Part shown: piece by piece, positions 34,113 to 59,902 of the stretch
Layout of the letters: each line of letters opens with the position of its first letter
Numbering within the stretch: the stretch's first letter is position 1
NCBI GenBank assembly: GCA_963735035.1
Contig: CAVTJJ010000003.1
Span: 704,001-768,000, forward strand
Source: an uncultured candidate division Zixibacteria bacterium
GTDB taxonomy: Bacteria > Zixibacteria > MSB-5A5 > GN15 > FEB-12
DNA: 64,000 nt
Reading direction: 5' to 3'
Position numbers and translations under genes: made by a program
Notes under the pieces: model-generated
What the model was told of the DNA's origin: nothing
Databases searched by the model: none
What the model saw: only the letters and a program-made list of their open reading frames with translations

Positions 34113-34361
34113 TTACAAGTAGGGACTCTTGCGGCAAACGCCGGTCATCGCTCAACCTGGGTCCCACATGCCGCCGCAACCATGTCCGATCCCATACTTC
34201 ACGATGGTGGCTTACTATCGACGAATCCGAATGCGGACACGCGCCCTGTCCGAGCAAAAAAACTTGACATCATCGCTCTTATTTTGTCTGTTGGGATCTG
34301 ACAGAAATTCTGGCGGATACGAATAAGAGTGGTTGAGTTGTCGAGCGAAATTAGTACGACC

Positions 34362-35636: not shown

Positions 35637-36691
35637 ACATCCGACGTCCTGGTCTGCTTGCTGTGATAACGCTGACTGTCGCTGCCGCCATGATGGCGGG
35701 CACGCCTCCGCAGGCGACTGTTTCGAGTCTGATATTCTCGCACACCCTGCACGTCACGGGACAGGGAATCGAGTGTGTCGCCTGTCACGCCGAAATTCCA
35801 TCCAGTACCGGCGCCAAAGATCTCAAGCTCCCGACCATGGATGCGTGCGCCGCATGCCATGAAGTCGAAGATGACAAGACCTGCGGACAGTGCCACCGCG
35901 ATCCGGAGAATCCGTCACCGGCGGTTGCGACCAGACTTTCGGTCCAGTTCAACCACAAGCGACACTTGGAACTCAAAACCGCCTGTAACACTTGTCACAG
36001 CCTGACGAATGAAAACGGCGAAGCTCTGCTGACACCCACTTTGCCAAATAAGCCGATGTGTATGTCCTGTCACGATGGCGTCCGCGCCCCGTGGGATTGC
36101 CGTCTTTGCCACGCCGGCGGTAAGACGACTCTGGCCGATATCCATCCGACCGGTTGGCGTCACCAGCACGCCGAACAAGCCACGCTCAAGCCGGATTGGT
36201 GCCACACCTGCCACCAGCAGGAAGTGTACTGCATTAGCTGTCACCGGGGTGACAACCAGACCGGCAGCATTCACGATCTCAACTACGAATTTACGCACGG
36301 GCTCGACGCTCAGGGCAAAGAGGCCGATTGCGCCCATTGCCACGACAGACGCGCTTTCTGCAACGATTGCCACGAACGCGAGAACCGAATGCCGCTAGCC
36401 CACTCGACCGGAGCCTGGCTCACCGAACACGGACGGGCGGCGCGCAACGACATAGAGAACTGTGCCTCCTGCCATGAAGTCGATGATCCCACCTGCGCCC
36501 GCGCGGGTTGCCATCGCGATGCCGACGGAGTTCGCGGGACAGACCAGCCGATTCATTCGGCAGATGCGGGTCGATTCGATAGCCATGGACCGTGGCACAG
36601 CGACGATAGCTATTTCTGTTTCACCTGCCATACCAGCACCGGCCGTCCGGGGGTTGGTTTCTGCGGCTACTGTCACGGGAGCAAAGACTGA
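35633..36691 (+). CDS. Periplasmic multiheme cytochrome c (13 CxxCH plus 1 CX4CH)
   Basis: Signal peptide and c3/c7-like FSHxxH/FNHxxH elements. Motifs counted by eye. Confidence 0.92.
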   Translation: MNIRRPGLLAVITLTVAAAMMAGTPPQATVSSLIFSHTLHVTGQGIECVACHAEIPSSTGAKDLKLPTMDACAACHEVEDDKTCGQCHRDPENPSPAVATRLSVQFNHKRHLELKTACNTCHSLTNENGEALLTPTLPNKPMCMSCHDGVRAPWDCRLCHAGGKTTLADIHPTGWRHQHAEQATLKPDWCHTCHQQEVYCISCHRGDNQTGSIHDLNYEFTHGLDAQGKEADCAHCHDRRAFCNDCHERENRMPLAHSTGAWLTEHGRAARNDIENCASCHEVDDPTCARAGCHRDADGVRGTDQPIHSADAGRFDSHGPWHSDDSYFCFTCHTSTGRPGVGFCGYCHGSKD

Positions 36692-38181
36692 TGAAAGCCC
36701 GGACAAATACTGGCCGCAGTCATAACGGAGCCGGTCTGGCATTAATTCTTTGCTTTGGTCTTCTTCTCTCCACCTGGTGCTGCAGCGATGAACGCACGGC
36801 CAGTCAGTTGCCGGGCACCCACTCGGCTTCGTGGATGGTTAGGGGATTGGCCGATTTTCATGGTACGGTCGCACTACAGAACGGCACCGGAAGTTGCGCC
36901 GTATGTCACGGGGAGGACTACAATGGCGGGCAGGTAGGCGTTTCATGTATTGATTGTCATCTAACCAGCGGTGCCTGTATCGCCTGCCACGGCGGATTGG
37001 ACAACCACACCGGCGCACCACCTCTCGGACTTCGCAGCGAAATTTCCGACACAACCGTGGCCGTGGGTGCACACACTCTGCACCTGACCGGAACGTCGCG
37101 CTCAGCTGCGGTGACCTGCCAGTCGTGTCACCTCGTTCCGGCAAGCATGTTCGAGCCGTATCATCTGAACGCCAACGGCGGCGTTCTTGATTCGATTGCC
37201 GAAATAACCTGGCAAGGATTCGCCGACGGCGGTCGCGCTCGATGGAACCGTACCGCTCGCACCTGCTCCCGCACTTATTGCCACGGCAATTTCAGCGGCG
37301 GTGATTCCACCTATTCTCCGATATGGACATCGCCCAAACCAGATTCATTGCGGTGTGGCACCTGTCATAATTCTGGTGACAACCCTGACTCTCTCGGATT
37401 CATCCATATAGTTCACTATTCCGGCAATACCTTCGTATGTGCCGACTGTCATTCCGGTGTGGTGGACTCGTCGCTGCACATCATCACCCCTTCGCTTCAC
37501 GTCAACGGCGTTGCCAACGTCACCCCTCTGGACACCACTAGGTGCGATCAGTGTCACGGCACCGGCCCGGCGGCCTGCACCCACTGTCACGGCGGCGGTG
37601 ACAATCAGACCGGGGCGCCGCCTCGTGGTTTGCACGGCGAAAATTCCGCGGCCGAACTGGCCGTGGGAGCGCACACCCCGCACATGGAAAGCGGCTATGT
37701 GGCTGACGCTTTCGCGTGCAATGAGTGCCACAAAGTGCCATCCCGCCTGTCCGATCCCGATCATTGGGCGGTTGATTCGGTTGCCGAAATCACCTGGGGT
37801 TCGCTGGCCGGCACCGGCTCGACCTGGAGTCGCATTACCCGCCGCTGCAGCTACACCTACTGCCATGGGAACTTCTACGGTGGATATATCGCCAACGCAC
37901 CTATCTGGAACGCCCCCGGCCAGGCAGCTTGCGGCTCGTGCCATGACGACGGCGCCAATCCGGGCGATCTGCTGGGCAAACACAGCAAGCATGTCCGTAG
38001 CGAACATATCGGATGCTACGAATGTCACTCCACTACGGTCGATTCGAGCTTGTCGATTATTGGCAAAGCGGTTCACGTCGATGGCCAGAACACGGTCGCG
38101 TTCGGAGCCAGACAGATTACTTACTCGAACGGCGGATGTTCCGGCTCAGGGCTCTGCCACGGTGATGAAAACTGGTTCTGA
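36691..38181 (+). CDS. Multiheme cytochrome c lipoprotein with CxxxxCH/CxxCH domains (11 CxxCH, 2 CX4CH, 1 CX5CH)
   Basis: Lipobox-like LLSTWCC. CSRTYCHG...W...CGTCH and CSYTYCHG...W...CGSCH. Internal duplication of GGxDNxTGAPPxGL...AVGAH. Confidence 0.9.
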   Translation: MKARTNTGRSHNGAGLALILCFGLLLSTWCCSDERTASQLPGTHSASWMVRGLADFHGTVALQNGTGSCAVCHGEDYNGGQVGVSCIDCHLTSGACIACHGGLDNHTGAPPLGLRSEISDTTVAVGAHTLHLTGTSRSAAVTCQSCHLVPASMFEPYHLNANGGVLDSIAEITWQGFADGGRARWNRTARTCSRTYCHGNFSGGDSTYSPIWTSPKPDSLRCGTCHNSGDNPDSLGFIHIVHYSGNTFVCADCHSGVVDSSLHIITPSLHVNGVANVTPLDTTRCDQCHGTGPAACTHCHGGGDNQTGAPPRGLHGENSAAELAVGAHTPHMESGYVADAFACNECHKVPSRLSDPDHWAVDSVAEITWGSLAGTGSTWSRITRRCSYTYCHGNFYGGYIANAPIWNAPGQAACGSCHDDGANPGDLLGKHSKHVRSEHIGCYECHSTTVDSSLSIIGKAVHVDGQNTVAFGARQITYSNGGCSGSGLCHGDENWF

Positions 38182-41189: not shown

Positions 41190-41229
41190 TTTTGTTTACA
41201 AGTTATTGGAGACGCTGTATCTTTGTACT

Positions 41230-41802
41230 ATGAAGAACCTCAACCTGCTCACCACCGGGAGCAAACCCGCGCCGGGCGAACTCGTTCTCGTACAGGGGCT
41301 TGTGAATACATTCAATGTCGAAACGGGTGAAGATGAAATCGGCACCAAAGAATCGCTTAAAGCCTGGCTGGTCCGCCATGGCTTGCTGCGCTCGGCCGCA
41401 GAAGTAACTTCTGAGGACCATCGGATCGCACTATCGTTTCGTGAAGCAATCAGACACCTCCTGTTAGCCAACAACGGCCAAACGGTGGAACCCGCGTCGC
41501 TAAAGCAGATAAATGCTCTGACCTCTCGGCTCAAACTGGGAATACAATTCAAGTCTGACGGGAATCTAACCCTCTCGCCTGACAGCGACGGCATTGCCGG
41601 TGTTTGCGAGCAGATACTGGCTATTGTAGTTCAGGCCATCAACAAGGGGACCTGGTCTCGCCTGAAAGCCTGTCACGAGTCCCACTGCCAGTGGGTGTTC
41701 TATGACTCTTCGAAGAATCACTCCGGTCGCTGGTGCTCGATGACTGTCTGCGGCAGCCGCGACAAGGCCCGAGCCTTTCGCAAGCGTAGATCCCTGGGGT
41801 AG
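41230..41802 (+). CDS. ABATE/CGNR zinc-finger regulator
   Basis: LVNT...RLKACHESHCQWVFYDSSKNHSGRWCSMTVCGSRDK. Confidence 0.9.
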   Translation: MKNLNLLTTGSKPAPGELVLVQGLVNTFNVETGEDEIGTKESLKAWLVRHGLLRSAAEVTSEDHRIALSFREAIRHLLLANNGQTVEPASLKQINALTSRLKLGIQFKSDGNLTLSPDSDGIAGVCEQILAIVVQAINKGTWSRLKACHESHCQWVFYDSSKNHSGRWCSMTVCGSRDKARAFRKRRSLG

Positions 41803-41814
41803 TGAAATTGCTAA

Positions 41815-42234
41815 TCAGTGGGAAGGTTGCTGAACGACTAGCTGAGGGGTCGGCTCAACGACGTCTATTATCCAGGCCAGAGCTACCTTCTCCCAGTTCT
41901 CCGTAATTCTGGCGTCAATGATACGATCATTGGTGGGGTACTGGGCCTTCGCGCAGGCTTGAATGACCATACCTTTGGCTACAGGCGACTCAACTATGAT
42001 GGCGCCTCTTTCACATCCCATTTTCCAAACGGCATCGTAAAGTTGGTCGAATACTTTGAGCACTTCAGGCGTCGGCAGGGTCAGCCTTCTCGAGTCAATC
42101 AAGAGTGAAAATGGTCCGGCGTGCTCGGCGAACGCAGCCATAACATCGGATTTGTACCGTTGCACTTCGTCGATTTTGAAAGTGCCCAACTGCACAATCT
42201 TGAATCCGTATGATGTCTTCTCGATCGAATACAT
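41815..42234 (-). CDS. Hypothetical protein (possibly STAS/SEC14-like fold)
   Basis: 139-aa ORF with FSLLIDSR...RGAIIVES pattern. The fold assignment is a guess. Confidence 0.6.
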   Translation of the reverse strand: MYSIEKTSYGFKIVQLGTFKIDEVQRYKSDVMAAFAEHAGPFSLLIDSRRLTLPTPEVLKVFDQLYDAVWKMGCERGAIIVESPVAKGMVIQACAKAQYPTNDRIIDARITENWEKVALAWIIDVVEPTPQLVVQQPSH

Positions 42235-42309: not shown

Positions 42310-43620
42310 CTACGCCAGCTTCTTCATCTCACCACCGAACGCAATGCCCATATCCCTGAGCATTTCAAACGGCGGGACGCCGCCTATCTGGACGATTACA
42401 TAGTCGTTGAGAATCTCGCGCACGCCCTCATTGGTTTGCAGGACCACGCTCTTGTCTTTGATTTCGACCACCTGTGAATCGAAAATCGCGTTTACTTTGT
42501 GACCCGCGATCAGCCGCGTCATGGCGTCTTCGTTCTTCTTCTTCACCCGAAAGAAGCTGCTCTTGCGATAGGATATAGTCACCGTATTTCCGGGTTGTCT
42601 CGCCAGACCGACCGCCGCTTCGACCGCACTGTCTCCTCCACCCACCACCAACACATGCTGGTTGGTGTAAGACTGGGCGTCGACCAGTTGATACATGACT
42701 TTGGCCTGTTCCTCGCCGGGCACTTCCAGCCGACGCGGCGTCCCGCGGCGACCGATCGCCAGCACCACAAAACGGGCCGAATACTCCGCCACCGGGGTCT
42801 TGATATCAAAATGGCTGTCAACGTGGCGAACTGACTCGACTTTCTGCCCCGGGCTCATCTTCAGATGAAAGCGATCATCGATTTCGTGCCAGATGCTCAT
42901 CAAGACTTCTTTCGAATACTCATCTTTCGTCAACCAACCGTAGAGCGGAATCTCGATCGGCTGCGTCATGACCAGTTTGCGGCGTGGATACTGGAGAATC
43001 GTGCCGCCCAACTCGCGTTCATCCAGCATGACATAATTCAGACCGTATTGTACTGCTGTTAACGCCGCTGAAATGCCGGCCGGTCCGGCCCCCACGATCA
43101 CGAAATCGTAATCAGTGCCATTCCCCGGCTTAACAATCCGTCGGGCGATTTCATCGACCACCATCCGCCCCTGGGCTACGGCGTTTCTAATTAGCGATAA
43201 CCCCCCCAGTTCGCCGGCTATAAACAGCCCCGGGACCGTGGTCTCGTTGACCGGCGTAAGAACCGGTATATCCGGGCGCGTTTTGATATCCCCCAGGCCG
43301 ACCTTAAGAGCTCCCACCGGACAGGCGGTTTCACAGAAACCGTGACCCACGCACCGCTCGCCGTTGATAACTTCGGCCACGCCCCATACCACTCCCAGGA
43401 CATCACCTTCCGGACAGGACGCAACACAGGCTCCACAACCGATACACTGAGACCGATTGACCATGGGATACTGGGCTCGTGGGCGGTCGATGCCCATGGC
43501 ATGCGCTTCCTGATGGCGTTCCGCCACGACCCGTCGGTTGTTCCGAAACTGGATCAGATACGGAAAGAAAATCACGGCTGCCAGAACCGCAACACCGGTC
43601 CAAATCAGTAGATGTTCCAT
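42310..43620 (-). CDS. Membrane-anchored ferredoxin plus thioredoxin-reductase-like NAD(P)H flavoprotein
   Basis: N-terminal TM helix, CIGCGACVASCP, CVGHGFCETACP, GLFIAGE, IVGAGPAG, VGGGDSA and SYRK. Confidence 0.88.
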   Translation of the reverse strand: MEHLLIWTGVAVLAAVIFFPYLIQFRNNRRVVAERHQEAHAMGIDRPRAQYPMVNRSQCIGCGACVASCPEGDVLGVVWGVAEVINGERCVGHGFCETACPVGALKVGLGDIKTRPDIPVLTPVNETTVPGLFIAGELGGLSLIRNAVAQGRMVVDEIARRIVKPGNGTDYDFVIVGAGPAGISAALTAVQYGLNYVMLDERELGGTILQYPRRKLVMTQPIEIPLYGWLTKDEYSKEVLMSIWHEIDDRFHLKMSPGQKVESVRHVDSHFDIKTPVAEYSARFVVLAIGRRGTPRRLEVPGEEQAKVMYQLVDAQSYTNQHVLVVGGGDSAVEAAVGLARQPGNTVTISYRKSSFFRVKKKNEDAMTRLIAGHKVNAIFDSQVVEIKDKSVVLQTNEGVREILNDYVIVQIGGVPPFEMLRDMGIAFGGEMKKLA

Positions 43621-43655
43621 AGTTGTTCTAACGTTCAAGAAGTTGTCTGGTTCGC

Positions 43656-45260
43656 TTAGAACCTGTAACCAAGTTCCGACTGAATCCGGAAACCCTTGAT
43701 ATCGTCGCCCGAATCGGTCTGCAATAACAGCCCCAGCCAGTATCGACGGCTGAGATCAGCCTGTCCGGACAGCTCGACCCAGTCGTTGTGTCGATAAGTC
43801 GTCACTTGCTCGGTCCGGTAGGCGTAGCTTCCGTAAGCAGCGTTGGCCGAGTACCTGCCACCAAAATAGGTGGTGGCTCGGACCGAGTAATTGTAGCCTC
43901 GGTTGGAAGGTCCGCTAAAGCCCGCGTACTGACCCATCAAGCTGAGCCCTTGAAACAGCAGGCTCCCCTTGCGAAGCTGTACTGAATAGGACTTGGTCGC
44001 GCTCGGGTCACCGGAGCGATTGCGATACCCCGCCGACAGAGACGAATACAGGTTACCGGGAAGTGTCAGATCGCTCTGCAGCCTGACTCCCTGGCGAAGA
44101 TGGTCATCGAATAGGCTGTCGACTGTAGAGCGGCTCCCGTATGTCCAGTAGTTGGTGCGGTTGTCATAGCTGAGAGAAAACCGTACCCGGGAAGTCGGAC
44201 GGATCCAGCCACTCAGGTAGAGATTCGACAGCTCGAACGTCGTCCCGGCCCGGACCTTTCGCCAGCTCCGATTGATATCAATCTCTCCGGTATGGTTTAT
44301 TCCCCATACGCTTCCCCGGCTCAGACGTCCCTGAATAACCAGGTACTCCCGGTTGACTTCCTGCCCATGATATTCACCAACTGCACCCAGGCTCTGCTCG
44401 AAATAGGTGTTCCGATAGTCACCTGAAGAGTAGCTGAAGTATCCGCCACCTTTCATTAGAGTCAGGCCTTGCTCATCGTACAGCCAATTCGGATAGGATC
44501 CACCGAACAGACCCGCGCGGAAGCGGTTGGACATCAGCCATTCCACCAACGCGCCGTCGATGAAGCCGATCGAGCCTGTCCGATGCGGCAGAATCCGACC
44601 GATCTGAAAATTGACCGGCGCCGACGGCTCCTCGTAGCTCAGCGAAAACTCCCATAGTCGATTCTGCCAGTCGTTGCGGGTGACAGCGGACGTGTAATCT
44701 CGCCGGCGTTTGTCAAACCGACCCCTTCCTCGTACGGCCAGCGTCAGTTCGTTGCCCCAGAGATGACGAGCCGTGAGTGATACTCGCGCGGTGGTTTGAC
44801 TGAAATCGAGATTCGACACGGTTTCATCGTTCCAGTAATAATACAAGAACGACATGCTGCCACTTACCGCCGCCTGACCTGGCTTGATTCGCACCGGCGT
44901 CGGTGCGGAAACGGGCGCGGGACTTACGGCCACCGGCTTTAGCGAATCTATCGTTACCGTACTGTCGAAGTTCAGAGGCGTCTTTGGTTCGACTGCGTCG
45001 CCGGCCTGAATATCACTCGTAGAGCTGATGATCTTGCACGAGGCCGAGTGGACCGAAATGTAAACCACTTCGATCTCCGCCTTGCTACCCTGTTTGCCCA
45101 AAACCAGAAGGCGCGTTCCCACGCTGAGACCGTCCGCCTGACCACCGTCAAGATAGACATTCTCGACCGAAACATATTTGACCGCAAAACGATCCTTGGC
45201 GCTTGCAGTAGCCACCAACAAGGTTAAGCAGACTGCGAATATCAGCAATTTCTTGATCAT
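43656..45260 (-). CDS. Outer-membrane beta-barrel with N-terminal soluble domain
   Basis: Signal peptide, small beta domain (VYLDGGQADGL), Pro-rich linker and amphipathic strands. C-terminal beta-signal ELGYRF; ATGA-coupled to the cytochrome gene. Confidence 0.82.
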   Translation of the reverse strand: MIKKLLIFAVCLTLLVATASAKDRFAVKYVSVENVYLDGGQADGLSVGTRLLVLGKQGSKAEIEVVYISVHSASCKIISSTSDIQAGDAVEPKTPLNFDSTVTIDSLKPVAVSPAPVSAPTPVRIKPGQAAVSGSMSFLYYYWNDETVSNLDFSQTTARVSLTARHLWGNELTLAVRGRGRFDKRRRDYTSAVTRNDWQNRLWEFSLSYEEPSAPVNFQIGRILPHRTGSIGFIDGALVEWLMSNRFRAGLFGGSYPNWLYDEQGLTLMKGGGYFSYSSGDYRNTYFEQSLGAVGEYHGQEVNREYLVIQGRLSRGSVWGINHTGEIDINRSWRKVRAGTTFELSNLYLSGWIRPTSRVRFSLSYDNRTNYWTYGSRSTVDSLFDDHLRQGVRLQSDLTLPGNLYSSLSAGYRNRSGDPSATKSYSVQLRKGSLLFQGLSLMGQYAGFSGPSNRGYNYSVRATTYFGGRYSANAAYGSYAYRTEQVTTYRHNDWVELSGQADLSRRYWLGLLLQTDSGDDIKGFRIQSELGYRF

Positions 45261-48200
45261 GCCCGCCCCCTTGGGTGACACGAGTAGCATGATGTGCTCT
45301 GGTACTGGTAGTTCTGAACACCGGAGTGCTTTGAATCGGTATCGGTCTTGTTGTGCTCGTGACAATTGATACACTCAAAGACGGCAAACGAACCCGCACT
45401 CACGTGACAATCTGCGCAAACACTCCAACGACCGTTGTGTATTCCTGAGTAGATCGGGAAATACTGACTGTCGTGATCCCAGGTCGACGGAGTCCAGCCG
45501 GTGGTCGTATGACAGTTCTGGCAGGCTGTCGGGAAGCCCGCCGCGGCGTGGCTCGGATTCGTGGTGGTCTGGTAAGCCGTCTGATGACACGCATAGCAAG
45601 CCGTCGAAGTGCCGGTATAGCCGCTGCTATGACACGCCACGCACGTCAAAGTTGTGTGCGCTCCCGTAAGCGGGAACGCCGTGGTGGCGTGGTTGAAGGA
45701 CGATGGCGTCCAAGCCGTAGTGGTGTGACAGGTCGTACAAATGTGATCGAAATTGTTGGTCACATGGTTCGGGTCTACCACTCCCTGGTAGGCCGCCTGG
45801 TGGCAGGAATAGCATGCTGTCGAAGTTCCGGCATAACCACTAGCGTGACACGATACACAGGTCACCGTAGCATGGGCTCCCGTAAGTGGGAAAGCCGTGG
45901 TGGCGTGGTTGAAGGTCGATGGCGTCCAGGCCGTAGGTGGTATGGCAGGTCGTACAAATGTGATCGAAATTGTTGGTCACATGGTTCGGGTCTACCACCC
46001 CCTGGTAGGCTGCCTGGTGGCAGGAATAACAATCGGTCGGTGTCCCGGCATAGGCCGTGGCGTGACAGGATATACACGTCACCGTAGTGTGAGCACCGGT
46101 CAAAGTGTAGCCGGTCGACGAATGGCTGAACGACGATGGCGTCCAGGCCGTGGTCGTGTGGCAGCCGGTACAGTCTTGGCTGAAACCAGCCAAGACATGG
46201 TTGGGATTAGTGGACGACGTAAAATTACTCTGATGACAGGAATAACATGCCGTCGAAGTTCCCGTATAACCACTGGCGTGGCACGATACACAGGTCACTG
46301 TGGTGTGCGCGCCGGTCAGCGGAAATGCCGTAGTGGCATGGTTGAAAGTCGAGGGCGTCCAAGCCGTGTTGTTATGACAGGTCAAACAATTGTGGTCGAA
46401 ATTGTTGGTCACATGGTTCGGATCTACCACCCCCTGGTAGGCCGCCTGATGGCAGGAATAACAGTCTGTCGGCGTTCCGGCATAGACCGTGGCGTGGCAC
46501 GAAACGCAGGTCACCGTAGTGTGAGCCCCGGTCAAAGCGTAACCCGTCACCGTATGGTTAAACGACGATGGCGTCCAGGCCGTAGTCGTATGGCAGCCGG
46601 TACAGTCTTGGCTGAAACTCGCCAGCACGTGGTTCGGATTGGTAGACGACTCGAAATTGCTCTGATGGCAGGAATAACAGTCGGTCGGCGTGCTGACGTA
46701 ACCCCCGGCGTGACACGAAATGCACGTCACCGTAGTATGCGCCCCTGTCAGCGGGAAGGCGGTAGTGGCGTGGTTGAAGCTCGAAGGAGTCCAGCCGCTA
46801 GAAGTATGGCAGGTCTGACAGTCGGTTGGGAATCCGGCCGTTACGTGGTTAGGATTCGTAGCCGTCGCAAAGGAGCTCTGATGACACGCATAGCAGGTCG
46901 TCGGCGTCCCGGTGTATCCGGCCGCATGACACGAATTACAACCTATCGTCAGATGCTGTCCCGTGAGGGCGAACGACGTCAGGGCATGACTAAAGCTCGA
47001 CTCCGCCCACGAGGTAGTATTGTGGCAGGTCAGGCAATTGTGATCGAAATTGCCCGTCACGTGATTCGGATCCGCCACACCCTGGTAGGCCGCCTGATGG
47101 CAGGAATAACAATCGGTCGGCGTACCGGCATAAGCTGTCGCATGACACAGATTACAGGCGGTGGTAATATGGGTACCCGTCAACGTGTAGCCTGTTACCG
47201 AGTGATTATATGACGACGGCGTCCAGCCACTGGTCGTATGGCACGTTGTGCAGTCGTGGCCAAAATTGGCGAGCGCGTGATTCGGGTTGGTGCCGGACGC
47301 ATAAACGCCCTGATGACACGAATAGCAATCGGTCGGTGTGCCGGCGTACCCGCTCGCATGACACAAATTACACGCGACGTTGACGTGCAAGCCGGTCAGC
47401 GGAAAAGCTGTAGTAGCATGGTTGAAAGTCGAGGGCGTCCACCCTGCCGTCGTATGACACACCGTGCAGTCGTGACCAAACCCCTGCTGCACATGGTTCG
47501 GCGACGTAACACCTTCGAATGCGGCCTGGTGGCAACTGTAGCAGTCAGTTGGAGTCCCGGCAAAGGTAGTGCTATGGCATCCTGAGCATGTCGCGCTGAC
47601 GTGCTTTCCGGTCAGCACAAATCCGGTCGTCGAGTGATTAAACGACGACGGCTTCCACGCGGAAGTAGTATGGCACTTAGTACAGTCGTGATCGAATTGC
47701 GCCAGAACGTGATTGGGATCCGTCGATTGATCGAAAACGGCCTGGTGACAGGCATAACAAGCGGTCGGCGTTCCCTTGTACTGTGTCGCATGGCAGGAGA
47801 TGCAAGTCGCCTGAAGATGCGCACCAGTCAGCGGAAACACTGTCAGGGAATGGTCAAAAGTGGCCGGCTTCCAGCCGTAGATCGTGTGGCACTGCGTACA
47901 GTCATGCGGGTAGGCGCCCGTCACATGGTTCGGATCGGTCGTGGCAGCAAAGACAGCCTCGTGGCATGAATAGCAATCGGTCGCTAAACCGACATACTGA
48001 GTAGCGTGGCACGCCTTGCAGGCCACTCCCTGATGCCCACCGACAAGCGGAAAAGCCGCCGGGTGATGATATTCCACATTCCGCCAGGTGGATGCAGTCG
48101 GCTGATGACAAACCTTACAGTCGGTCGAAAAACCGGCCCGCGCATGATTCGGATCCTGGGTCGCCGAGTACGCCTCCGTATGGCAATCGTAGCAAACCAT

Positions 48201-48665
48201 CGGCGTGCCGGCGTACTCCTGTCGCGCGTGGCCGACATGGCAAGCTTCGCAGTCCGCGACCGCGTGCGCACCGGTCAGAGCAAATCCCCTTGAGGCGTGC
48301 ATTTCGAGCGTACTTCGACGGTTCTGCCAATCGCGCGGCGTGTGGCAATTGTCGCAGTCCTGACCAAGCTGGCCGTTGTGGCGATCAGCGTGGCAGTCAG
48401 CACAGGCAACTCCGACGTTACTAAACAGGGGACTCTTGTGGCAGCCGATACACTGCGCCGTTGCGTGCGAACCTACCAGGACAAAGCCGGTCGCATCGTG
48501 CTTGAACTGCAGCGAATCGCGCATCTTCGACCAGGATTCGGTGGTATGGCAGTCCTGACAGTCCCACTTCAAGTTACCGTGGGGGTTCTTCACGGTCGAT
48601 TGACTTAGAAGCGCACTTCCGATAAGCAATGACGCGCCAATCAGAAACAAGAAGAATCGTCTCAT
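45257..48665 (-). CDS. Giant multiheme cytochrome c, 46 CxxCH, about 1135 aa; frameshift near 45936
   Basis: 37 CxxCH before and 9 after the shift. Removing one base (CATACCACCTACGGCC to CATACCACTACGGCC) restores the HTTTAWTP repeat. Sec signal peptide. Confidence 0.92.
45480..48030 (-). repeat. Intragenic 216-nt (72-aa) tri-heme tandem repeat, about 12 regular units
   Basis: Unit CxxCH-10-CYxCH-20(PNH)-CxxCH-27(WTP..FNH..FPLTGAH). The distal units are nearly identical at DNA level. Confidence 0.9.
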
Positions 48666-48667
48666 GA

Positions 48668-50320
48668 TTAACTGCTCCTTTCCGGAGTGATCGTGCCGTG
48701 GCAGGAGACGCAAGTGATGTCAATCGGCTTGTATTTGGCAAATAGTCCGTTCTCGTCTTTTACACTCAAATGACACTTTTCACAGAGCACCGTCCGGTGG
48801 GCGCCGTCCAGTTTGAACCGACTATTCTTATGGTCGAACTTCGTAGTCTTCCAGCTTGATGCCAAATGGCACCCCGAACAATCGGTGGCATTATCCTTCG
48901 CGAATTGACCGCGATGAGTATCCGGATGACACGATTGGCAATCGGTCCGGATACCGGTAAAGCGCACCGCTTTGATGTCTTTCGCCTGGGCGATATCGGT
49001 ATGACACTTCATACAGGCAACTTGGACGTGACGCCCTTCGAGAGGAAACTTGCTCTTCGAATGGTCATAATTGACCCGGTTCCACCCCTCGACTGCGTGA
49101 CAGAGTTCACACCCTGAGGCCGCCACCATCTTGTCCACTTGTCCCTTGTGCGGGTCCTTATGGCATCCCAGGCATTTCACAGAAGCGAAGACAAACCGCA
49201 GCTTTGAAGAACCATCGGCCGCTTTCAGCTTGTGGCAAGTCAGACACGGTACGGCTTGATGGGCGCCACGAAGCGGATAATCCGATTGATCGTGCTGGGC
49301 CATCGTGTAGCGCGCCGGAGAGTAACCGCCGACCGTATGGCACTCTTCGCAAGCGCCCTTCGACGCCCGCTTGGCGAAATCTCCATTATGGTAATCCGAA
49401 TGGCAGTCACGACAGGCGGCGAATTTCAATCCCGGCTTGGCCTGGCCTCCGCTGTGACATTTCTCGCACTTCAGGGCAAGATGCTTCCCTTCCAACGGGT
49501 AGCGCGTCTTCTTGTGATCGAAATTCACCGTATTGACCAAACGCCACCCTTCACTGCTATGACAGGAGCTACAGTTCGCCCCGAGCTTACCCTTATGCGG
49601 ATCGGTATGGCAGTCAGTGCATTGGGCAAACGGCAAGCCGACGTACTTCTGGTAGTTGGGATCTTCCGGGAGCGGACGGTCGGTCAGAAGTGGGTGACAT
49701 TTTACACAGAGAACGGTCATGTGCTTGCCTGTCAGAACATATTTGGCCGTGGCGTGGTCGAAGGCCGCCGCCGGTTTCCACGCGGTCATAACGTGGCACT
49801 TGGCGCAGACTTCACTCAATTGGCCGCGATGCTCATCCCGATGGCACGCTGTGCAGGCGGTCTGAAGTCCCAGGAAAGTCCTCTTTGGGTTAGTCTTCTC
49901 CTTCGATCCAACCGCCAGCGCGCCCATATACTTGGCGTCATGACACTTGCGGCAAGTCAGCGAGCCATGTTTCCCCTCAAGACGAAACGCGGTGGCAGAA
50001 TGGTCAAACGCGGTGTCGCCGTCTTTCCAATAGATCAGAGCAACGTCACGCCCCTGGTGCTCCACATGGCACTTCTGGCAGGAACGATAATCCTGGCGGC
50101 TGTGCAGTCCTTTGCCGGCGTCCTGCTGGTTCTTGATCCGGACATGGCAGTCAAGACATTTGTCCGGCACCAGTTCCTGATCACCACCGTGGCATTTGGT
50201 GCAGTTCTCAACTCCTTCGAGAGACGTATGCCCCTCACTTAGATCACCGGGCGAGAGCTGCGCCCGAACTGTCCCCGCCCCGAGGAAGAAAAGAAATATG
50301 AGCAGTAGGCCCCTTACCAT
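48668..50320 (-). CDS. Periplasmic 20-heme cytochrome c
   Basis: Signal peptide ending VRA-Q, LSPGDLSEGH and 20 CxxCH. FDH...YPLEGKH tri-heme repeats; Lys-rich. Confidence 0.93.
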   Translation of the reverse strand: MVRGLLLIFLFFLGAGTVRAQLSPGDLSEGHTSLEGVENCTKCHGGDQELVPDKCLDCHVRIKNQQDAGKGLHSRQDYRSCQKCHVEHQGRDVALIYWKDGDTAFDHSATAFRLEGKHGSLTCRKCHDAKYMGALAVGSKEKTNPKRTFLGLQTACTACHRDEHRGQLSEVCAKCHVMTAWKPAAAFDHATAKYVLTGKHMTVLCVKCHPLLTDRPLPEDPNYQKYVGLPFAQCTDCHTDPHKGKLGANCSSCHSSEGWRLVNTVNFDHKKTRYPLEGKHLALKCEKCHSGGQAKPGLKFAACRDCHSDYHNGDFAKRASKGACEECHTVGGYSPARYTMAQHDQSDYPLRGAHQAVPCLTCHKLKAADGSSKLRFVFASVKCLGCHKDPHKGQVDKMVAASGCELCHAVEGWNRVNYDHSKSKFPLEGRHVQVACMKCHTDIAQAKDIKAVRFTGIRTDCQSCHPDTHRGQFAKDNATDCSGCHLASSWKTTKFDHKNSRFKLDGAHRTVLCEKCHLSVKDENGLFAKYKPIDITCVSCHGTITPERSS

Positions 50321-51243
50321 ACCCACCCGTATCCGGTCCAGACAACCACACTGATATGAACCATCATTATGATATACATGAGAATCGCAAACGGCTTGTG
50401 GATCACATGCCAGTAATGAAACGTTTGCTGCACCTGTGCCAGCAGCGCCACCCGTCGCTGAAGCAGCGCCCTTGTGAACGCCGGTTTTGCAAATTCTCGC
50501 AGTTGTCGCTTGGGCATAGGCATGGCAACCATTATCTCATGTACAAAGCGGCGCCGCACAAACGGACGAAACAAATCGTCCACAAGCAAGAGGCCGATGG
50601 CTCGCATGGCGCCGCCCCCGAAACCGGTAACGTACCGGGCGGTCACGCCCTCGAGCTTGATGATGCCGGCGTCATCTAGTTCAAAACGATTTCGCAGTTG
50701 CTTGGTTAAATCGCCCATTAGCCCATTTAGTTCCTGAATGGTCAGTTCTGTGCCCTGGATATTTCGAGGAATCTGCAGATAAAGATAGCGGCCGAAAAAT
50801 CCGCTTGCAGCCACCGCCACCATAGACCAGAAAGCTACCGCCACCAGACCTTGTACCTTGAAAGCCGTATGTAGTACAATGAAGAGCGGTCCCATAACGC
50901 CCAGGTAAATATGAAAATCCAGCAATGACCGAAGCGAAATCTTCCGTCCCAACAACTTGGTACGCTTGCGCACCGAATAGATCAGCATCAGAACCAACAT
51001 CCCTGCTCCGGCATAACCGTACATCAGCCCTCGGGTTCCGGCGGGGCGGAATTCGCGATAGCCTAGGTCGTGAGGCCGGTCGGCATAGGGGGTCGTGTAG
51101 TACGAAAAACCGTCTATCAGAAACCAGACAAGCAGAGCTATAGAAACGAGCCAAACCAGCCAGAAGAACAGACTCCTGCCGGACTCATTATTGTGGGGTT
51201 TCTCAAGGACGGGACTGACCGCCTCAACGAGTGGTAATTGCAT
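50314..51243 (-). CDS. Inner-membrane protein with conserved-looking TM histidines (cytochrome b / ferric-reductase-like)
   Basis: About 5 TM segments with LDFHIYLG, IVLHT, YWHVIHKPF and MVHIS. First gene of the cytochrome operon. Confidence 0.75.
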   Translation of the reverse strand: MQLPLVEAVSPVLEKPHNNESGRSLFFWLVWLVSIALLVWFLIDGFSYYTTPYADRPHDLGYREFRPAGTRGLMYGYAGAGMLVLMLIYSVRKRTKLLGRKISLRSLLDFHIYLGVMGPLFIVLHTAFKVQGLVAVAFWSMVAVAASGFFGRYLYLQIPRNIQGTELTIQELNGLMGDLTKQLRNRFELDDAGIIKLEGVTARYVTGFGGGAMRAIGLLLVDDLFRPFVRRRFVHEIMVAMPMPKRQLREFAKPAFTRALLQRRVALLAQVQQTFHYWHVIHKPFAILMYIIMMVHISVVVWTGYGWVW

Positions 51244-55466: not shown

Positions 55467-56243
55467 CTATTTCCGGCCGGTCTTGGGAATTTGCGCCAGG
55501 AGGCGAAGCAGACCGTCAAGTATCGTAACGGGATGGGGCGGGCAGCCGGGTATAAAAAGGTCCACCGGCAGCAGGTTCTCGGCGCCGTTGTGTACCTGGG
55601 GATGGTCGACATACGGTCCGCCGGAAATTGCGCAGGCTCCGACCGCGATCACAATCTTCGGATCGGGCACCGCCTCGTAGGTCTTGAGTAGAGCGAGTTT
55701 CATGTTTTCCGTGACCGGGCCCGTAATCAACAACCCGTCGGCGTGTCTCGGCGAAGCTACAAACTGGATACCAAAACGCCCCAGATCGTACACAATGGTG
55801 CCCAGCACATTTATGTCTACCTCACACCCGTTACACCCACCGGCGCTTACCTGCCTCAGACGAAGCGAGCGCTTGAACAAGCGAAGAGATTCATCCTGGA
55901 GCTTTTGAACCAGCACTTTCTCCGAATCGTGTCGAATCAGAAGATCGGAGCGATTATTGGCGGCCAGGCTGTGGTCACCAGAGTACCTAATCAATTTTCC
56001 CGAACAAGCTTTCACACACTCCCCACAGAAGAGACAGCGGCCCATATCAATCACCGGATGGCGGTCAACCACTTTGACCGCGACTGTTGGACAGACTCTT
56101 ACGCACTCAGAGCATTCGTTCGCACAGTTATCCGAACTGACCACAGGCCGACCGGCAAACCGCTCCGGAAGGATCGGGGGTTCGTCAGGGAAACCGACCG
56201 TCCGGTTTCCGAATTTCATGCGCGCGAGTAACGCTTTCAGCAT
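55467..56243 (-). CDS. Ehr small subunit (2x[4Fe-4S] fused to NuoB/HycG-like domain)
   Basis: CSECVRVCP, CLFCGECVKAC, GGCNGCE, ASPRHADG, GACAISGG and PGCPPHP. Confidence 0.9.
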   Translation of the reverse strand: MLKALLARMKFGNRTVGFPDEPPILPERFAGRPVVSSDNCANECSECVRVCPTVAVKVVDRHPVIDMGRCLFCGECVKACSGKLIRYSGDHSLAANNRSDLLIRHDSEKVLVQKLQDESLRLFKRSLRLRQVSAGGCNGCEVDINVLGTIVYDLGRFGIQFVASPRHADGLLITGPVTENMKLALLKTYEAVPDPKIVIAVGACAISGGPYVDHPQVHNGAENLLPVDLFIPGCPPHPVTILDGLLRLLAQIPKTGRK

Positions 56244-56252
56244 AAGTCTGCT

Positions 56253-57731
56253 CTACAGGTCATGGCCACAGTACGAAAGGTTGAAACTCTTATTGCACAG
56301 CGGGAAGTCCGATATCTGCTGGTTTCGCATCGCGGCCGCGAGGCCGGCCCAGTTATGAAATGACGGATCGAACACTTTGTACCATTCGAATCGCCCGTCG
56401 CCGCCAGTGCACGCTATATGACAGATTTCGCCGCGCCATCCTTCGACCAGCGAAATAACGAGTGAGTCCGGCTCAATCGAGTCAGACGTAGCCGGGGCCA
56501 GAGCCGGCTCGTTTGGCATGGTTGTCAACCGGGCGCGAATAAACTCAACCGAGCGGGCAATCTCCTGCCAACGAATATGCGCACGCCCAAACACATCCCC
56601 CGTCTGCCACAGCGACACCGGAATCTGAGCAAAACTGAAGACATCAGAAGGATAATCCAAACGCGCATCCTGTTCCAATCCTGCCGCCCGCGCGGGGGGA
56701 CCAACGATTCCCAATTCCCGACACTGCGCCATTCCGAGCAATCCCGCCCCTTCGAAACGACTGACCACCGACGGCGTGTCCCACAACAGAGCCGCGGTCG
56801 TACTGATGTCCGCAAAAGCCTGATCCAGTCTCTTCAGGAACACCTCTATCTGACTCTCATCGAGATCATACGCCACACCGCCGGGCCGCGCGATGCCGCG
56901 CCCAAGCCGATTGCCACAGAGAAATGCCGTCAGGTTCAGGAAGTCTCCCCGAATTCGTCCACAGTGTGACGCCACCGGAAGATAGCCAACATCGCCGGCC
57001 AGCGCCCCGAGATCGCCCGTGTGATTGGCCAGACGTTCCAACTCCAGCGCCACGCTTCGCAAGATCATCCCGCGCAAAGACACTCGACGGTGCGACAAGG
57101 TCTCTAAATTCTGGCAGTACGCGGTGGCATGCCCGACCGACGTATCCCCCGCCAGCGTTTCCATATAATGTATGGTGCGCGGGGTCGGTCCGTCCTTCAA
57201 AGCCTGTTCCACGCCCCGGTGTTGATACCCGAGTGAGATTTCCAAGTGTAGGACATTTTCCCCTGCGCACGAAAATCTAAAATGCCCCGGCTCGATTATT
57301 CCCGCGTGCACCGGGCCAACTGCCACTTGATGAATGTCGCTTCCGGAAATACTGTAGAAATCGGTTATTCCCACCGGCGATCCGCTGAATCGAATAGGCT
57401 TCAGCCAGGGATGCCCTTCGGGAGTCACACCGCACGATTCTGCGATCTCTCTTTCGAACCAGTGGGCCTGCGTGCACTGCGGCGTCAAAGCAGGATACCT
57501 ATCCTTCACGAGCGTCGAGCAAGTCTTGAGCGCCCCTTCATCCCGGACGGAAATCACCCCGTAGAGCCGGTGTCCATTGACATGCGGTTGCGCGAACAAG
57601 GCAATCAACCGGTCGCCGATGGCAACGCTCCCAATGATCGTCTCAGCGAAAGAATCGAACTTGAGCATCGGGATGTCCCGAAGCCGCACCAGTTCGCAAT
57701 GGCGACACATGAGCGCCCGATCTCCACTCAT
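56253..57731 (-). CDS. Ehr large subunit (HycE/NuoCD-like, no Ni-binding CxxC)
   Basis: FEREIAE, VGPVHAGIIEPGHF, LGYQHRG and EGWRGE. The L1 position reads ETLAGDTSVGH and the C-terminus reads DFPLCNKSFNLSYCGHDL. Confidence 0.9.
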   Translation of the reverse strand: MSGDRALMCRHCELVRLRDIPMLKFDSFAETIIGSVAIGDRLIALFAQPHVNGHRLYGVISVRDEGALKTCSTLVKDRYPALTPQCTQAHWFEREIAESCGVTPEGHPWLKPIRFSGSPVGITDFYSISGSDIHQVAVGPVHAGIIEPGHFRFSCAGENVLHLEISLGYQHRGVEQALKDGPTPRTIHYMETLAGDTSVGHATAYCQNLETLSHRRVSLRGMILRSVALELERLANHTGDLGALAGDVGYLPVASHCGRIRGDFLNLTAFLCGNRLGRGIARPGGVAYDLDESQIEVFLKRLDQAFADISTTAALLWDTPSVVSRFEGAGLLGMAQCRELGIVGPPARAAGLEQDARLDYPSDVFSFAQIPVSLWQTGDVFGRAHIRWQEIARSVEFIRARLTTMPNEPALAPATSDSIEPDSLVISLVEGWRGEICHIACTGGDGRFEWYKVFDPSFHNWAGLAAAMRNQQISDFPLCNKSFNLSYCGHDL

Positions 57732-59210
57732 CACCGGCCTCCCAGCAAGCGTGCCGCTTCGTTAAGAAGACCGCTCAACGGCGACGGCAGGTAGACACCC
57801 AACATCAGGACCGCAAGGCACAAGACGGCCGGAGGTAGAATCGAGGTCAAAGATTCTCTATCAGTCGAGGTGCCTGCCGATTCACGGGTCGGTCCGTACA
57901 CCATCTTCATTACTATACTCGTCATGGCGACAAAGATAACCCCCAGCGCCGCCAGAAGCACAATTGCTACCATTATGTGCCCCGAGTCGAGGGCGGCGCG
58001 AATAATTGTCAACTCACTTTGAAAAAGACCAAACGGCGGCATTCCGGTAATGGCGAACAGACCGGCCATCCAGAGCACCCCCGATGCCGGCAGTTCGCCC
58101 AGCATGCCGGTAATCATGCTGACCGACTTCGTTCGGTAACGCGCCAGAATATTGCCCGCTACGAGAAACAGCATCCCTTTGGTCAGCGAGTGATTCACGG
58201 CGTGAAGCAGGGCTCCGAAGGAACCCAGCCCGCCGAGTCCGACACCCACGGCCAGAATTCCCATGTGTTCGATGCTTGAATAGGCCAGCATTCGCTTGTA
58301 ATCAAGCTGTGCGACTATGAAGACCGTCGCAATCACGACCGAGAGCAGCCCGAACACGAGCAATAGTCCATGAGCAAAGTCACCAGACCCGGTCGCATCG
58401 AGCACCTGCGTCATTCGCAAAATGCCGAGGAAAGCGCAATTAAGCAGCGCTCCCGAAAGCAGCGCCGATACTACCGACGGCGCCTCGCTGTGGGCGTCGG
58501 GCAGCCAACTGTGAAGAGGCGCCAGTCCCATTTTTGTTCCATATCCTACCAGCATGAACAGGAAAGCTATCTTTATCCAGGGCACCCGGAGGGACGAAGC
58601 ATTGGCAACCAGGTCGCCCACCACCAGCGGCACATCAGTGGTCTCCATGTCCTGACGCGGCAAAGGCGAGAAAGAACGTGCCCAGCAGGGCCAGCGCGAT
58701 ACCCACCGAACAGATCAGCAGATATTTCCAGGTCGCTTCAAGGGAACGATGGTGTCGGTGGAAATAGATGAGCGGAGCACTCGTCAGCGTGGTCGCCTCG
58801 ACCGCCACCCAGAGCAAGCCGAAGTTGTGACTCATAGTGACGAGAGACATCGTCGCCAGGAAAAGCAGCAGGCAACCGACAAAGACAGCTTCGGGCTCAT
58901 TGACGAACAAGACCGATTCTTGAAAATCAGGTCGTTCCCCGGCTTGCTCCCGGGCAAGGTATGACACAGCGTACACGGCCGCGGCCAGGAACAGGCAACT
59001 TACGGCCGACAGGAATACCAACCCAAGAGCATCGATCTGCAGCCAGCCGTCCATGATCGGCTCAGGGCGCAAATACCAGGCTAACGCCGTCAGTGCGGCG
59101 TGACCAATCGCCACCGCCACCAGCAGCCCCCGCCGCAGGTCATTCCTCCGCGTGACGAAAGATGTCAGTCCGGCCAGAGCCGGTATGAGTACGAGCGCCA
59201 GGATTATCAT
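57731..59210 (-). CDS. hyfF: HyfF-like antiporter-type membrane subunit; frameshift near 58640
   Basis: WVAVEATTL and EATWKY, then GYGTKMGLAPLHSWLPDAHSEAP and KRMLAYSSIEH in the adjacent frame. Confidence 0.85.
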
Positions 59211-59902
59211 GCTTCGGAATCCTTGCTCGTCAATTCCTTGCGACCCTTGAACCAGTCTTTGAGCGTACTCAACTGACCCGTCTCGATGTTGTCAAACTCG
59301 CGACTGATCTGGAACACCATGATGCCCATGATGAACACACCCACAAAGACGTCCAGGAGAATACCTATTTCGATCAACATCGATTCCGACTGGGCGAAGA
59401 AGACACCGAAAGCATAAATGCCGTTTTCCAAAGCGAGATACCCGATGATTTGCATCAGAGCTTGTCGACGGCTGACGATCAGAAAGAGTCCTGTGACTAT
59501 AGTAAAGAAGACCATCGGTATCGCCAGGCGGTAACCGGTCTGGTCAGGGAGTGGCAGGACGTATCCCCACCAGAGTGAACTGCCCATCACAAAGATGCCG
59601 ATTAGCAGCGAAGGCATCGGCCCGACATAGTAGGTGATGGTGCGCACCGTGCTTAGTTCGCGAAGACTGCGCATCAACAGGCGGGGAAACACGATACCCT
59701 TGAGCGTGATCACCAGAACCGCGATTATCGCCAATCGAACCGAGAGTCCGTCCTGATGGACAAACAGCGGCAGAAGGCCTAGCGCTAGTCCTTGAACGGC
59801 GATGATTCGTACCGACGCTCTCAGCCACCCTGCACCCAGAAGCAGGAAGTTGGTGATGATAATCAGCACGACTAAAGCACTTACCATATCGTACATAATC
59901 AT
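59207..59902 (-). CDS. hyfE: HyfE-like membrane subunit
   Basis: Hydrophobic, with QIIGYLALENGIY and EIGILLDVFVG. TGATG coupling. Confidence 0.85.
   Translation of the reverse strand: MIMYDMVSALVVLIIITNFLLLGAGWLRASVRIIAVQGLALGLLPLFVHQDGLSVRLAIIAVLVITLKGIVFPRLLMRSLRELSTVRTITYYVGPMPSLLIGIFVMGSSLWWGYVLPLPDQTGYRLAIPMVFFTIVTGLFLIVSRRQALMQIIGYLALENGIYAFGVFFAQSESMLIEIGILLDVFVGVFIMGIMVFQISREFDNIETGQLSTLKDWFKGRKELTSKDSEA

Follow-up and report, generated by a model that had tools for sequence, protein, structure and literature searches.

From which pool does a chain of haems that spans the whole cell envelope draw its electrons? To our knowledge, all characterised Gram-negative routes of extracellular electron transfer (EET) enter the periplasm from the quinone pool. 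The question is raised by a five-gene operon (positions 42,310 to 51,243) within a 64,000-nucleotide stretch of DNA from an uncultured Zixibacteria bacterium, the whole of which is here called the window. The operon encodes an inner-membrane protein (IMP), two multihaem c-type cytochromes, an outer-membrane β-barrel and a membrane-anchored ferredoxin-flavoprotein. It probably provides a wire from the inner membrane to the cell surface, and its conserved fifth gene suggests feeding by cytoplasmic NAD(P)H rather than by quinol. By sequence features, four of the five genes match the porin-cytochrome cluster PCC3, and every PCC3 feature tested is found in the cluster. We regard it as an evenly balanced proposition that the operon joins a PCC3-type trans-envelope conduit to a NOX-like input, running from NAD(P)H through FAD and iron-sulfur (FeS) clusters to haem b, and that it exports electrons.

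The operon and its conservation

All five genes lie on the minus strand, tightly packed and where the sequence-only reading had placed them. The first encodes the PCC3-type IMP of 309 amino acids (50314-51243), recognised from the list of open reading frames (ORFs), an AlphaFold2 model and its motifs. It is followed by the gene for a 20-haem c-type cytochrome of 552 amino acids with a Sec signal peptide (48668-50326), assigned by CXXCH count and Pfam, and by the gene for a large repetitive cytochrome with 46 CXXCH motifs (45257-48665), which is divided between an ORF with 37 motifs (45840-48713) and one with nine (45257-45865). The outer-membrane β-barrel, or porin, comprises 534 amino acids (43656-45260) when the ATG at codon 39 of the listed ORF is taken as its start, and was assigned from its AlphaFold2 model. 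The ferredoxin-flavoprotein, recognised by Pyr_redox_3 and Fer4, is last (42310-43638); it comprises 436-442 amino acids, the likely start Met lying at 43620 according to the alignment. The IMP and 20-haem cytochrome genes overlap by 13 nt, a gap of 2 nt separates the stop of the latter from the ATG of the large cytochrome (48665), the stop of the large cytochrome and the start of the barrel share an ATGA at 45257-45260, and the spacing between barrel and flavoprotein is 17-35 nt. Across all 3.6 Mb of the genome, only 19 ORFs contain at least three CXXCH motifs, and dozens of other genomes show the gene set in synteny; the operon is therefore not a chance arrangement. Scanning for promoters and terminators gave counts no different from background (5 where 6.5 were expected, and 12 where 8.4 were).

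We surveyed one genome per species, which yielded 476 relatives of the IMP, and kept the best 80 loci for analysis of synteny, the flavoprotein being located in these by tblastn. It was found in 55 of the 80 loci, and the remaining 25 all end within 5.5 kb after the IMP gene. The locus labelled Caldithrix abyssi (L058) stops 1.4 kb past its IMP gene. Where at least 9.5 kb of downstream sequence is available, both barrel and flavoprotein are present in 46 of 47 loci, on one strand and in constant order; in the 47th (L054), the flavoprotein is cut off at the end of the locus. The sequence-only reading had described the five genes as one tightly packed unit, and the survey shows this unit to be conserved, the flavoprotein included. 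By their labels, the related loci come from Zixibacteria, Ignavibacteria, Calditrichota and Acidobacteriota, among others. Eleven proteins from genes flanking the operon or lying further off in the window were looked for in the 80 related loci and none was found again, which identifies the five genes as the unit. In one locus labelled Acidobacteriota (L068), the IMP gene directly adjoins that of the flavoprotein with no intervening cytochrome, and a PDZ protein is the only other neighbour that was recognised. Within the window's phylum, the IMP occurs in 78 of 285 genomes (60 of 198 when restricted to those of high quality), nearly always as a single match, and the IMP family as a whole contains 3992 cluster representatives at E ≤ 1e-3.

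Relation to PCC3

In the available text of He, Barco, Emerson and Roden (2017, Front Microbiol 8:1584, PMC5566968), PCC3 consists of a porin, an 'extracellular' cytochrome (median 34 haems), a 'periplasmic' cytochrome (median 21 haems) and a hypothetical inner-membrane protein of ~300 amino acids. This last protein is described as having five transmembrane (TM) helices, with an SGXXG motif on TM4 and a WX3HX13H motif on both TM3 and TM5, and it is likened to the ferric reductase domain. PCC3 is presented there as a bioinformatic proposal of experimentally untested function, and it has also been surveyed in Gallionellaceae (PMC9900912, available text).

The window cluster has the same gene content and, read from the other end, the same gene order: a barrel adjoining the cytochromes, a very large repetitive cytochrome, a second cytochrome close to the expected 21 haems, and an IMP of ~300 residues with five TM helices. 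The resemblance extends to the large cytochrome, with its low residue-per-haem ratio and repeats rich in T, S, A and G, and to the IMP, with SGXXG on TM4 and HX13H on TM3 and TM5. This assignment rests on the published description of PCC3 rather than on sequence comparison with Slit_0867-0870 of Sideroxydans ES-1. The sequence-only reading had taken the operon for a strong candidate for an undescribed EET system, a claim that must be withdrawn for the porin, the two giant cytochromes and the ~300-residue IMP, as these correspond to the PCC3 of He et al. (available text). In contrast to PCC3, the window cluster and its relatives add a fifth conserved gene, the membrane-anchored ferredoxin-flavoprotein; their hosts are, by locus label, Zixibacteria, Ignavibacteria and Calditrichota rather than Proteobacteria; and the window's periplasmic cytochrome has 20 haems as opposed to 21-27.

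The flavoprotein is mentioned neither in the main text or eight supplementary files of He et al. nor in the available text of later PCC3 papers. Our search, which covered literature outside subscription journals and bioRxiv supplements, found no paper tying PCC3 or any other porin-cytochrome cluster to a flavoprotein of this kind. Relative to the literature examined, the strictly syntenic NAD(P)H-type FeS flavoprotein is thus new, as is the implied docking of cytoplasmic FeS partners by the PCC3/PCC4 IMP. PCC3 has been an orphan since 2017, widespread and among the largest haem counts known yet with no established function; the syntenic FeS flavoprotein, together with the FeS-fused IMP relatives described below, offers a concrete hypothesis for how electrons pass the inner membrane.

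The inner-membrane protein

The AlphaFold2 model of the IMP (pLDDT 78.3) contains five TM helices (residues 21-44, 70-95, 104-125, 133-157 and 268-303), with a helical insert of ~110 residues between TM4 and TM5. Charge counts place the loop 92-103 (5.1 K+R) and the insert 158-271 in the cytoplasm by the positive-inside rule, and hence predict an N-in, C-out topology. Two HX13H pairs, H111/H125 on TM3 and H282/H296 on TM5, are invariant in all 51 aligned sequences, so that the paired TM histidines noted in the sequence-only reading are upheld. SGXXG is likewise present in 51/51, and both HX13H motifs are accompanied by the Trp in 32 of the 51 sequences; in the window copy, L107 replaces the Trp of TM3. 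A further invariant cluster, H276-x2-H279-x2-H282 (FHYWHVIHKPF, 51/51), is situated at the cytoplasmic end of TM5 and may be a docking site or an extra metal or haem site.

When the 51 members were scanned against Pfam, weak matches were obtained to DUF4405 (28 members, best E 4.8e-6), Ferric_reduct (26 members, best E 4e-4) and Ni_hydr_CYTB (19 members), with any other family matched by at most three. The window IMP itself falls below the DUF4405 cut-off (E 0.046). We take these three to be di-haem b families of one Pfam clan. For DUF4405, haem b binding has been established experimentally (PMC11334425, available text). On the strength of the invariant histidines and these distant likenesses, the IMP is a putative di-haem b transmembrane wire. 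Searching the PDB sequences with the IMP profile gave nothing below E 1.5, all 30 of 30 ESM Atlas matches fall in unnamed clusters, and a search of the window's own genome with PF01794 gave no match at E ≤ 0.001. Runs of a complex prediction combining IMP, flavoprotein and two haems gave values of 0.51, 0.10 and 0.05.

Four longer relatives of the IMP (P0121-P0124, 649-742 amino acids, 27-34% identity) have a poly-4Fe-4S domain directly N-terminal to the IMP domain. These fused proteins are without a signal peptide, and the 4Fe-4S domain is read as cytoplasmic; P0121, the only one that was aligned, retains all four histidines. In PCC4 subgroup II, an FeS gene (pfam13247) is found upstream of the IMP gene or is annotated as fused with it, according to the available text of PMC5566968. 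The region of ~200-250 amino acids that precedes the 4Fe-4S domain in P0121-P0124 has no Pfam match at E ≤ 0.001. Two further apparent fusions, P0381 (IMP N-half with a Pyr_redox C-half) and P0382 (IMP N-half with a cytochrome c), are of odd length and look like gene-call chimeras; both were dropped as fusion evidence.

The ferredoxin-flavoprotein

In the fifth protein, a TM helix at the N terminus is followed by a 2x[4Fe-4S]-type domain and then by a FAD/NAD(P)H domain of TrxR fold, which has two Rossmann motifs. It matches Pyr_redox_3 (E 2e-45) and Fer4 families; the closest solved structure is YpdA/Bdr (7a7b, E 1e-28), and its PDB matches include TrxR-type ferredoxin-NADP reductases. Eight potential cluster ligands (C65, C68, C71, C75, C96, H99, C102 and C106) are invariant in 51/51 sequences, as are the GAGPAG and GGGDSA motifs. 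The second cluster site reads C-x2-H-x2-C-x3-C, and from this arrangement the second FeS cluster would have Cys3His ligation. GGGDSA is followed by SYR(K), an R/K-rich stretch in which SYR is likewise invariant; basic rather than acidic residues after the second glycine motif suggest a preference for NADPH.

The window flavoprotein has only seven Cys, all of them FeS ligands in the FeS domain, and no CxxC disulfide, and is hence not a disulfide reductase. It scores below the family cut-offs for YpdA/Bdr (TIGR04018, 168.4 against 339.9 bits) and TrxR (TIGR01292, 94.2 against 343.45). Source annotations name such proteins 'thioredoxin reductase (NADPH)', 'YpdA family' or 'NAD(P)-binding'; given the missed cut-offs and the lack of redox-active Cys outside the FeS domain, the first label is likely a misnomer. 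The combination of FAD and NAD(P)H dinucleotide motifs with no disulfide centre is instead that of a protein working like a TrxR-fold ferredoxin-NAD(P)+ reductase. No Tat motif occurs in the 51 orthologues, and the charges flanking the TM helix are strongly asymmetric (K+R of 7.4 after and 0.1 before); the redox domains should therefore be cytoplasmic, in a predicted N-out/C-in orientation. Between the ferredoxin domain and the first GxGxxG (residues 125-165), a conserved TxxPGxFxAGELGG is found. This presumably resembles the 'GD' motif that binds FAD near the C terminus of pyridine-nucleotide-disulfide oxidoreductases, a likeness that would suggest a circular permutation.

NAD(P)H or quinone as the source

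Together, the two-cluster ferredoxin domain of the flavoprotein and the fusion of FeS domains to relatives of the IMP speak for electron transfer from protein to protein on the cytoplasmic side. Pfam and NCBIfam scans of the five operon genes found no NapC/NirT, FdnI-fused or comparable quinol-oxidase domain; there was also no ImcH-named match, with no ImcH model known in the libraries. The lack of a quinol-oxidase-type gene in the operon counts in favour of a NOX-like input. The sequence-only reading had stated that CymA, ImcH and CbcL were not recognisable, and this stands for the operon itself but not for the genome, in which two CbcL-like fusions, a Rieske/cytochrome b module and an HmcABC-like set are encoded elsewhere.

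The published model couples PCC3 to quinone. Applied to the window, it would cast the IMP as a quinone-active cytochrome b with two haems, connecting the pool of menaquinone with the periplasmic cytochrome, and the flavoprotein as an NAD(P)H:quinone-type feeder or as an accessory or regulatory redox protein, not a direct donor to the haems. We consider this, the main rival reading, rather unlikely: the ferredoxin domain of the flavoprotein, the FeS-fused IMP relatives and the strict synteny of the flavoprotein gene speak against it. It does draw on several observations: 19 of the 51 IMP members weakly match Ni_hydr_CYTB, and relatives of that type are typically quinone-reactive; the genome encodes complex-I-like and other quinone-linked modules; and other possible quinol:cytochrome modules of the genome could feed the periplasmic cytochrome. 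A quinone-active cytochrome b is also what He et al. proposed for the PCC3 IMP (PMC5566968, available text).

Three of these points, namely the quinone-reactive relatives, the alternative feeding modules and the published proposal, also weigh directly against an NAD(P)H-fed conduit, and several others must be set beside them. With Ferric_reduct (PF01794), the window IMP reaches only E 0.005 and 17.4 bits, short of the gathering threshold of 28. The Foldseek search of the IMP model against the PDB gave no match at E ≤ 0.001, and thus no clear likeness to NOX, MsrQ or cytochrome b, and a wide structure search using VIA found only generic helical bundles (best Z 8.2). Proteobacterial PCC3 is, in the available text of later papers, a four-gene cluster that does not include the flavoprotein. 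The large cytochrome is frameshifted in this assembly, as discussed below. Finally, the NOX-like reading is a proposal from sequence and structure prediction.

The cytochromes, the barrel and a frameshift

The 20-haem cytochrome has 20 CXXCH motifs and exactly 40 His and 40 Cys residues, a composition that fits electron-transfer haems with bis-His ligation throughout. It matches Cytochrome_C7, c3_2 and CIII, both operon cytochromes being of the c7/c3 multihaem type, and exactly 20 motifs are found in 59 of its 61 orthologues. It is probably the wire that spans the periplasm, its periplasmic placement being drawn by analogy with PCC3. The large cytochrome is repetitive: its tandem period of 216 nt corresponds to three-haem units of 72 residues, with ~25 residues per haem and a composition rich in T (15%), A (10%), S (9%) and G (7%). 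Among 37 loci in which its orthologue is a single large ORF, it has 10-70 haems, and the count is of the form 3n+1 in 35 of the 37; across related loci, haem counts reach 73. No lipobox was found in any of these 37 orthologues. The large cytochrome is probably the outer wire. A constant 20 haems alongside an elastic second cytochrome would fit a periplasm-spanning ruler joined to an external wire of adjustable length, and a similar idea for PCC3 is given in the available text of PMC9900912.

The barrel protein lacks CXXCH motifs and has no Pfam or NCBIfam match. An AlphaFold2 model based on a 42-sequence alignment (pLDDT 85) shows a signal helix, a small N-terminal β domain (residues 25-92), a disordered linker and a barrel of ~22 strands ending in ...GYRF. 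The signal peptide is retained in the orthologues, whose last residue is in most cases aromatic or Leu, with ...GYRF the commonest ending. Foldseek returned outer-membrane barrels and porins (PapC, E 2e-9), while VIA ranked the 22-strand TonB-dependent receptor barrels first (FyuA, Z 17.5, root-mean-square deviation (rmsd) 4.8, 353 residues aligned). MtrB (6r2q_B) was placed at rank 27, with Z 14.8 and rmsd 5.0 over 337 aligned residues, which amounts to a generic resemblance.

The sequence-only reading had counted a 46-haem cytochrome and 66 haem motifs in the operon. Both counts hold (37 + 9 for the large cytochrome, and 20 + 37 + 9 = 66 for the operon), but the 46 motifs do not form a single open frame in the assembly. 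Compared with sibling repeat units, an extra T is present at 45935 and breaks the frame: siblings read TGCCAyACGACCACGGCCTGG (CHTTTAW), and the unit at 45947 carries the additional base. If the frameshift is real, the operon would be decaying and the conduit non-functional in this organism, whatever the family does elsewhere. We judge this improbable. The extra T lies outside any homopolymer run and the upstream frame stops 31 codons later, both of which speak for decay. Set against them, the sum of 37 and 9 motifs is 46, which is again 3n+1 as in 35 of 37 orthologues; the downstream frame is open, repeat-perfect and coupled to the barrel gene through ATGA; and other genes in the window also look split. 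Given the 3n+1 sum, the intact downstream frame and these split-looking genes, an assembly error is at least as likely as a real frameshift. A search for sequencing runs for the operon listed neither a run nor an RNA holder. In a related locus (L031), an intact ORF of 1142 amino acids encodes 46 haems.

Proposed route and direction of electron flow

Gene content, motifs, topology predictions, synteny and domain fusions are what we observe; the following route, in which cofactor binding, partner contacts, direction and quinone independence are conditional, is what we infer from them. Cytoplasmic NAD(P)H would reduce the FAD of the membrane-anchored flavoprotein, whose two FeS clusters would relay the electrons to a stacked pair of b haems, bound by the HX13H histidines in TM3 and TM5 of the IMP. 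Having crossed the inner membrane in this manner, the electrons would be received by the fixed-length 20-haem periplasmic cytochrome and exit via the outer cytochrome, of variable length and 3n+1 haems, at the 22-strand barrel with which it is associated. Flow is likely outward, with Fe(III)/Mn(IV) minerals, humics or partner cells as the sink for reducing equivalents. The inner-membrane step would be electrogenic and conserve no energy by itself: on bioenergetic grounds, the membrane potential should help export while the proton stays inside, and such an export module would thus be an electron sink for redox balance as opposed to a coupling site.

The converse would be uptake: electrons taken from Fe(II), cathodes or partner cells would travel inward along the conduit and be passed by the IMP and flavoprotein to NAD(P)+. 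We consider this very improbable. In its favour, the cofactor chain is reversible in principle, and Fe(II) oxidisers were the bacteria in which PCC3 was discovered, with a role in Fe(II) oxidation proposed (PMC5566968, available text). Against it, entry against an inside-negative potential to about -320 mV should need very low-potential donors, and in Sideroxydans ES-1 the expression of both PCC3 clusters fell on Fe(II) (PMC8788666, available text). Usability in either direction, as had been suggested from the sequence alone, is accordingly unsupported, inward flow to NAD(P)+ being expected to oppose both the redox potential and the membrane potential.

Extended beyond the window, NAD(P)H-driven export would make the PCC3 of the FCB group a self-contained, quinone-independent NAD(P)H:extracellular-acceptor oxidoreductase, in which a NOX-like pair of flavoprotein and di-haem b protein is wired to a 20-haem 'ruler' and to an outer wire that is elastic, its 3n+1 count running from 10 haems to 70 or beyond. 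We advance this wider proposal tentatively, with somewhat less than even confidence. If true, fermentative bacteria could vent pyridine-nucleotide electrons straight to minerals or partner cells, which would explain how minerals or electrodes serve as electron sinks for fermenters in sediments, aquifers and bioreactors. The PCC3/PCC4 IMP would then be seen as a transmembrane wire for docking FeS partners in the cytoplasm, and no longer as a quinone-active cytochrome b. As the IMP family is large and present in more than a quarter of the genomes of this phylum, assigning it a function would give an annotation to thousands of genes that at present bear the label 'hypothetical' or 'thioredoxin reductase'.

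Comparison with other systems

The proposed input resembles NOX, ferric reductase domain proteins and MsrQ, where a cytoplasmic NAD(P)H flavoprotein delivers electrons to a stacked pair of b haems that two TM helices bind through two His pairs and that pass the electrons across the membrane. It differs from these in that the window flavoprotein is a separate protein of TrxR fold with its own FeS domain and TM anchor; in that the IMP has five TM helices and a cytoplasmic helical insert, lies below the Pfam threshold and has no listed structural match; and in that the acceptor is a multihaem cytochrome rather than O2, Fe chelates or MsrP. The DUF4405/FezC cytochromes b associated with flavinylation and ferrosomes similarly have four central TM histidines and a proposed role in transmembrane electron transfer, but are described in the available text of PMC11334425 as having six TM helices and ApbE/flavinylated partners, in contrast to the five TM helices and multihaem partners found here.

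In MtrCAB of Shewanella and in the OmaB-OmbB-OmcB Pcc system of Geobacter, a porin with a periplasmic and an outer multihaem cytochrome likewise forms a trans-outer-membrane wire. These systems are fed by CymA, ImcH or CbcL, whereas the window operon is without a NapC/CymA-, ImcH- or CbcL-type gene. The window barrel is modelled with ~22 strands and is closest to barrels of TonB-dependent-receptor size, and the outer cytochrome is not a lipoprotein. The DmsE/MtrA family model gave 60.7 bits against a cut-off of 192.2; with this score, the missing lipobox and the generic barrel resemblance, the cluster falls outside MtrCAB. The Tmc and Hmc complexes of sulfate reducers link a periplasmic multihaem cytochrome, via a membrane cytochrome b, to a cytoplasmic FeS protein, as is proposed here; their subunits are NarI/HdrE- and HdrD-like, and unlike the window operon they are without an NAD(P)H flavoprotein, a porin or an outer wire.

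Several published systems were considered as possible matches. OetABI of syntrophic sulfate-reducing bacteria was set aside, OetI being the porin. So were three studies: that of the Rifle bioanode, in which the PCCs of Ignavibacteria are OmbB- and MtrB-like; that of Chocolate Pots, limited to 'pcc-like' systems; and the Zixibacteria RBG-1 paper, with an MtrAB-like cluster and PetAB. The window cluster is not described in the available text of the Caldithrix abyssi genome paper. A peat preprint on EET1-4, whose section 9 gives cytochromes of 8-13 haems, was also set aside.

Other redox modules in the genome and the window

Elsewhere in the genome, two adjacent CbcL-like proteins are encoded on contig C1 (9000-16019, locus L081; 1407-3428 and 3459-6263 within it). 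They have 11 and 19 CXXCH motifs, each fused to a formate-dehydrogenase-gamma-like (FdnI-type) di-haem b domain, and are candidate quinol oxidases for EET in this genome. The genome also has a Rieske/cytochrome b module that includes a 9-haem cytochrome, as well as an HmcABC-like set. On contig C3 (864000-883999, locus L086), a second, large EET-like cluster encodes a cytochrome of 1066 amino acids with 42 CXXCH motifs in doubled-CXXCH/DmsE-like repeats, a decahaem DmsE-like protein, several cytochromes of 5-7 haems and two NHL-repeat proteins. Any of the CbcL-like fusions, the Rieske/cytochrome b module, the HmcABC-like set or the 42-haem cluster could reduce the periplasmic cytochrome of the operon.

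The window itself contains a second putative porin-cytochrome set on the plus strand (34329-38181), made up of a 435-residue protein with no Pfam or NCBIfam match and two cytochromes, one of 352 amino acids (13 CXXCH, c7 triheme type) and one of 496 (11 CXXCH, Geobacter CxxxxCH/CxxCH domain). This set is not kept beside the PCC3-type set in other loci. A complex-I/Mrp-like (group-4-hydrogenase-like) module is encoded on the minus strand (55467-62784) and includes a NuoB-like protein with Fer4, NuoCD-like and NuoH proteins and antiporter-like subunits. Several pieces of this module (57731-58663, 58635-59210, 59207-60124 and 59902-60897) overlap or are domain-deficient and look as though frame errors had split them. 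Immediately beyond the end of the flavoprotein gene lie a 139-residue ORF of no known family (41815-42234, minus strand) and a gene for an ABATE/CGNR zinc-finger regulator (41206-41802, plus strand), neither of which is conserved with the cluster.

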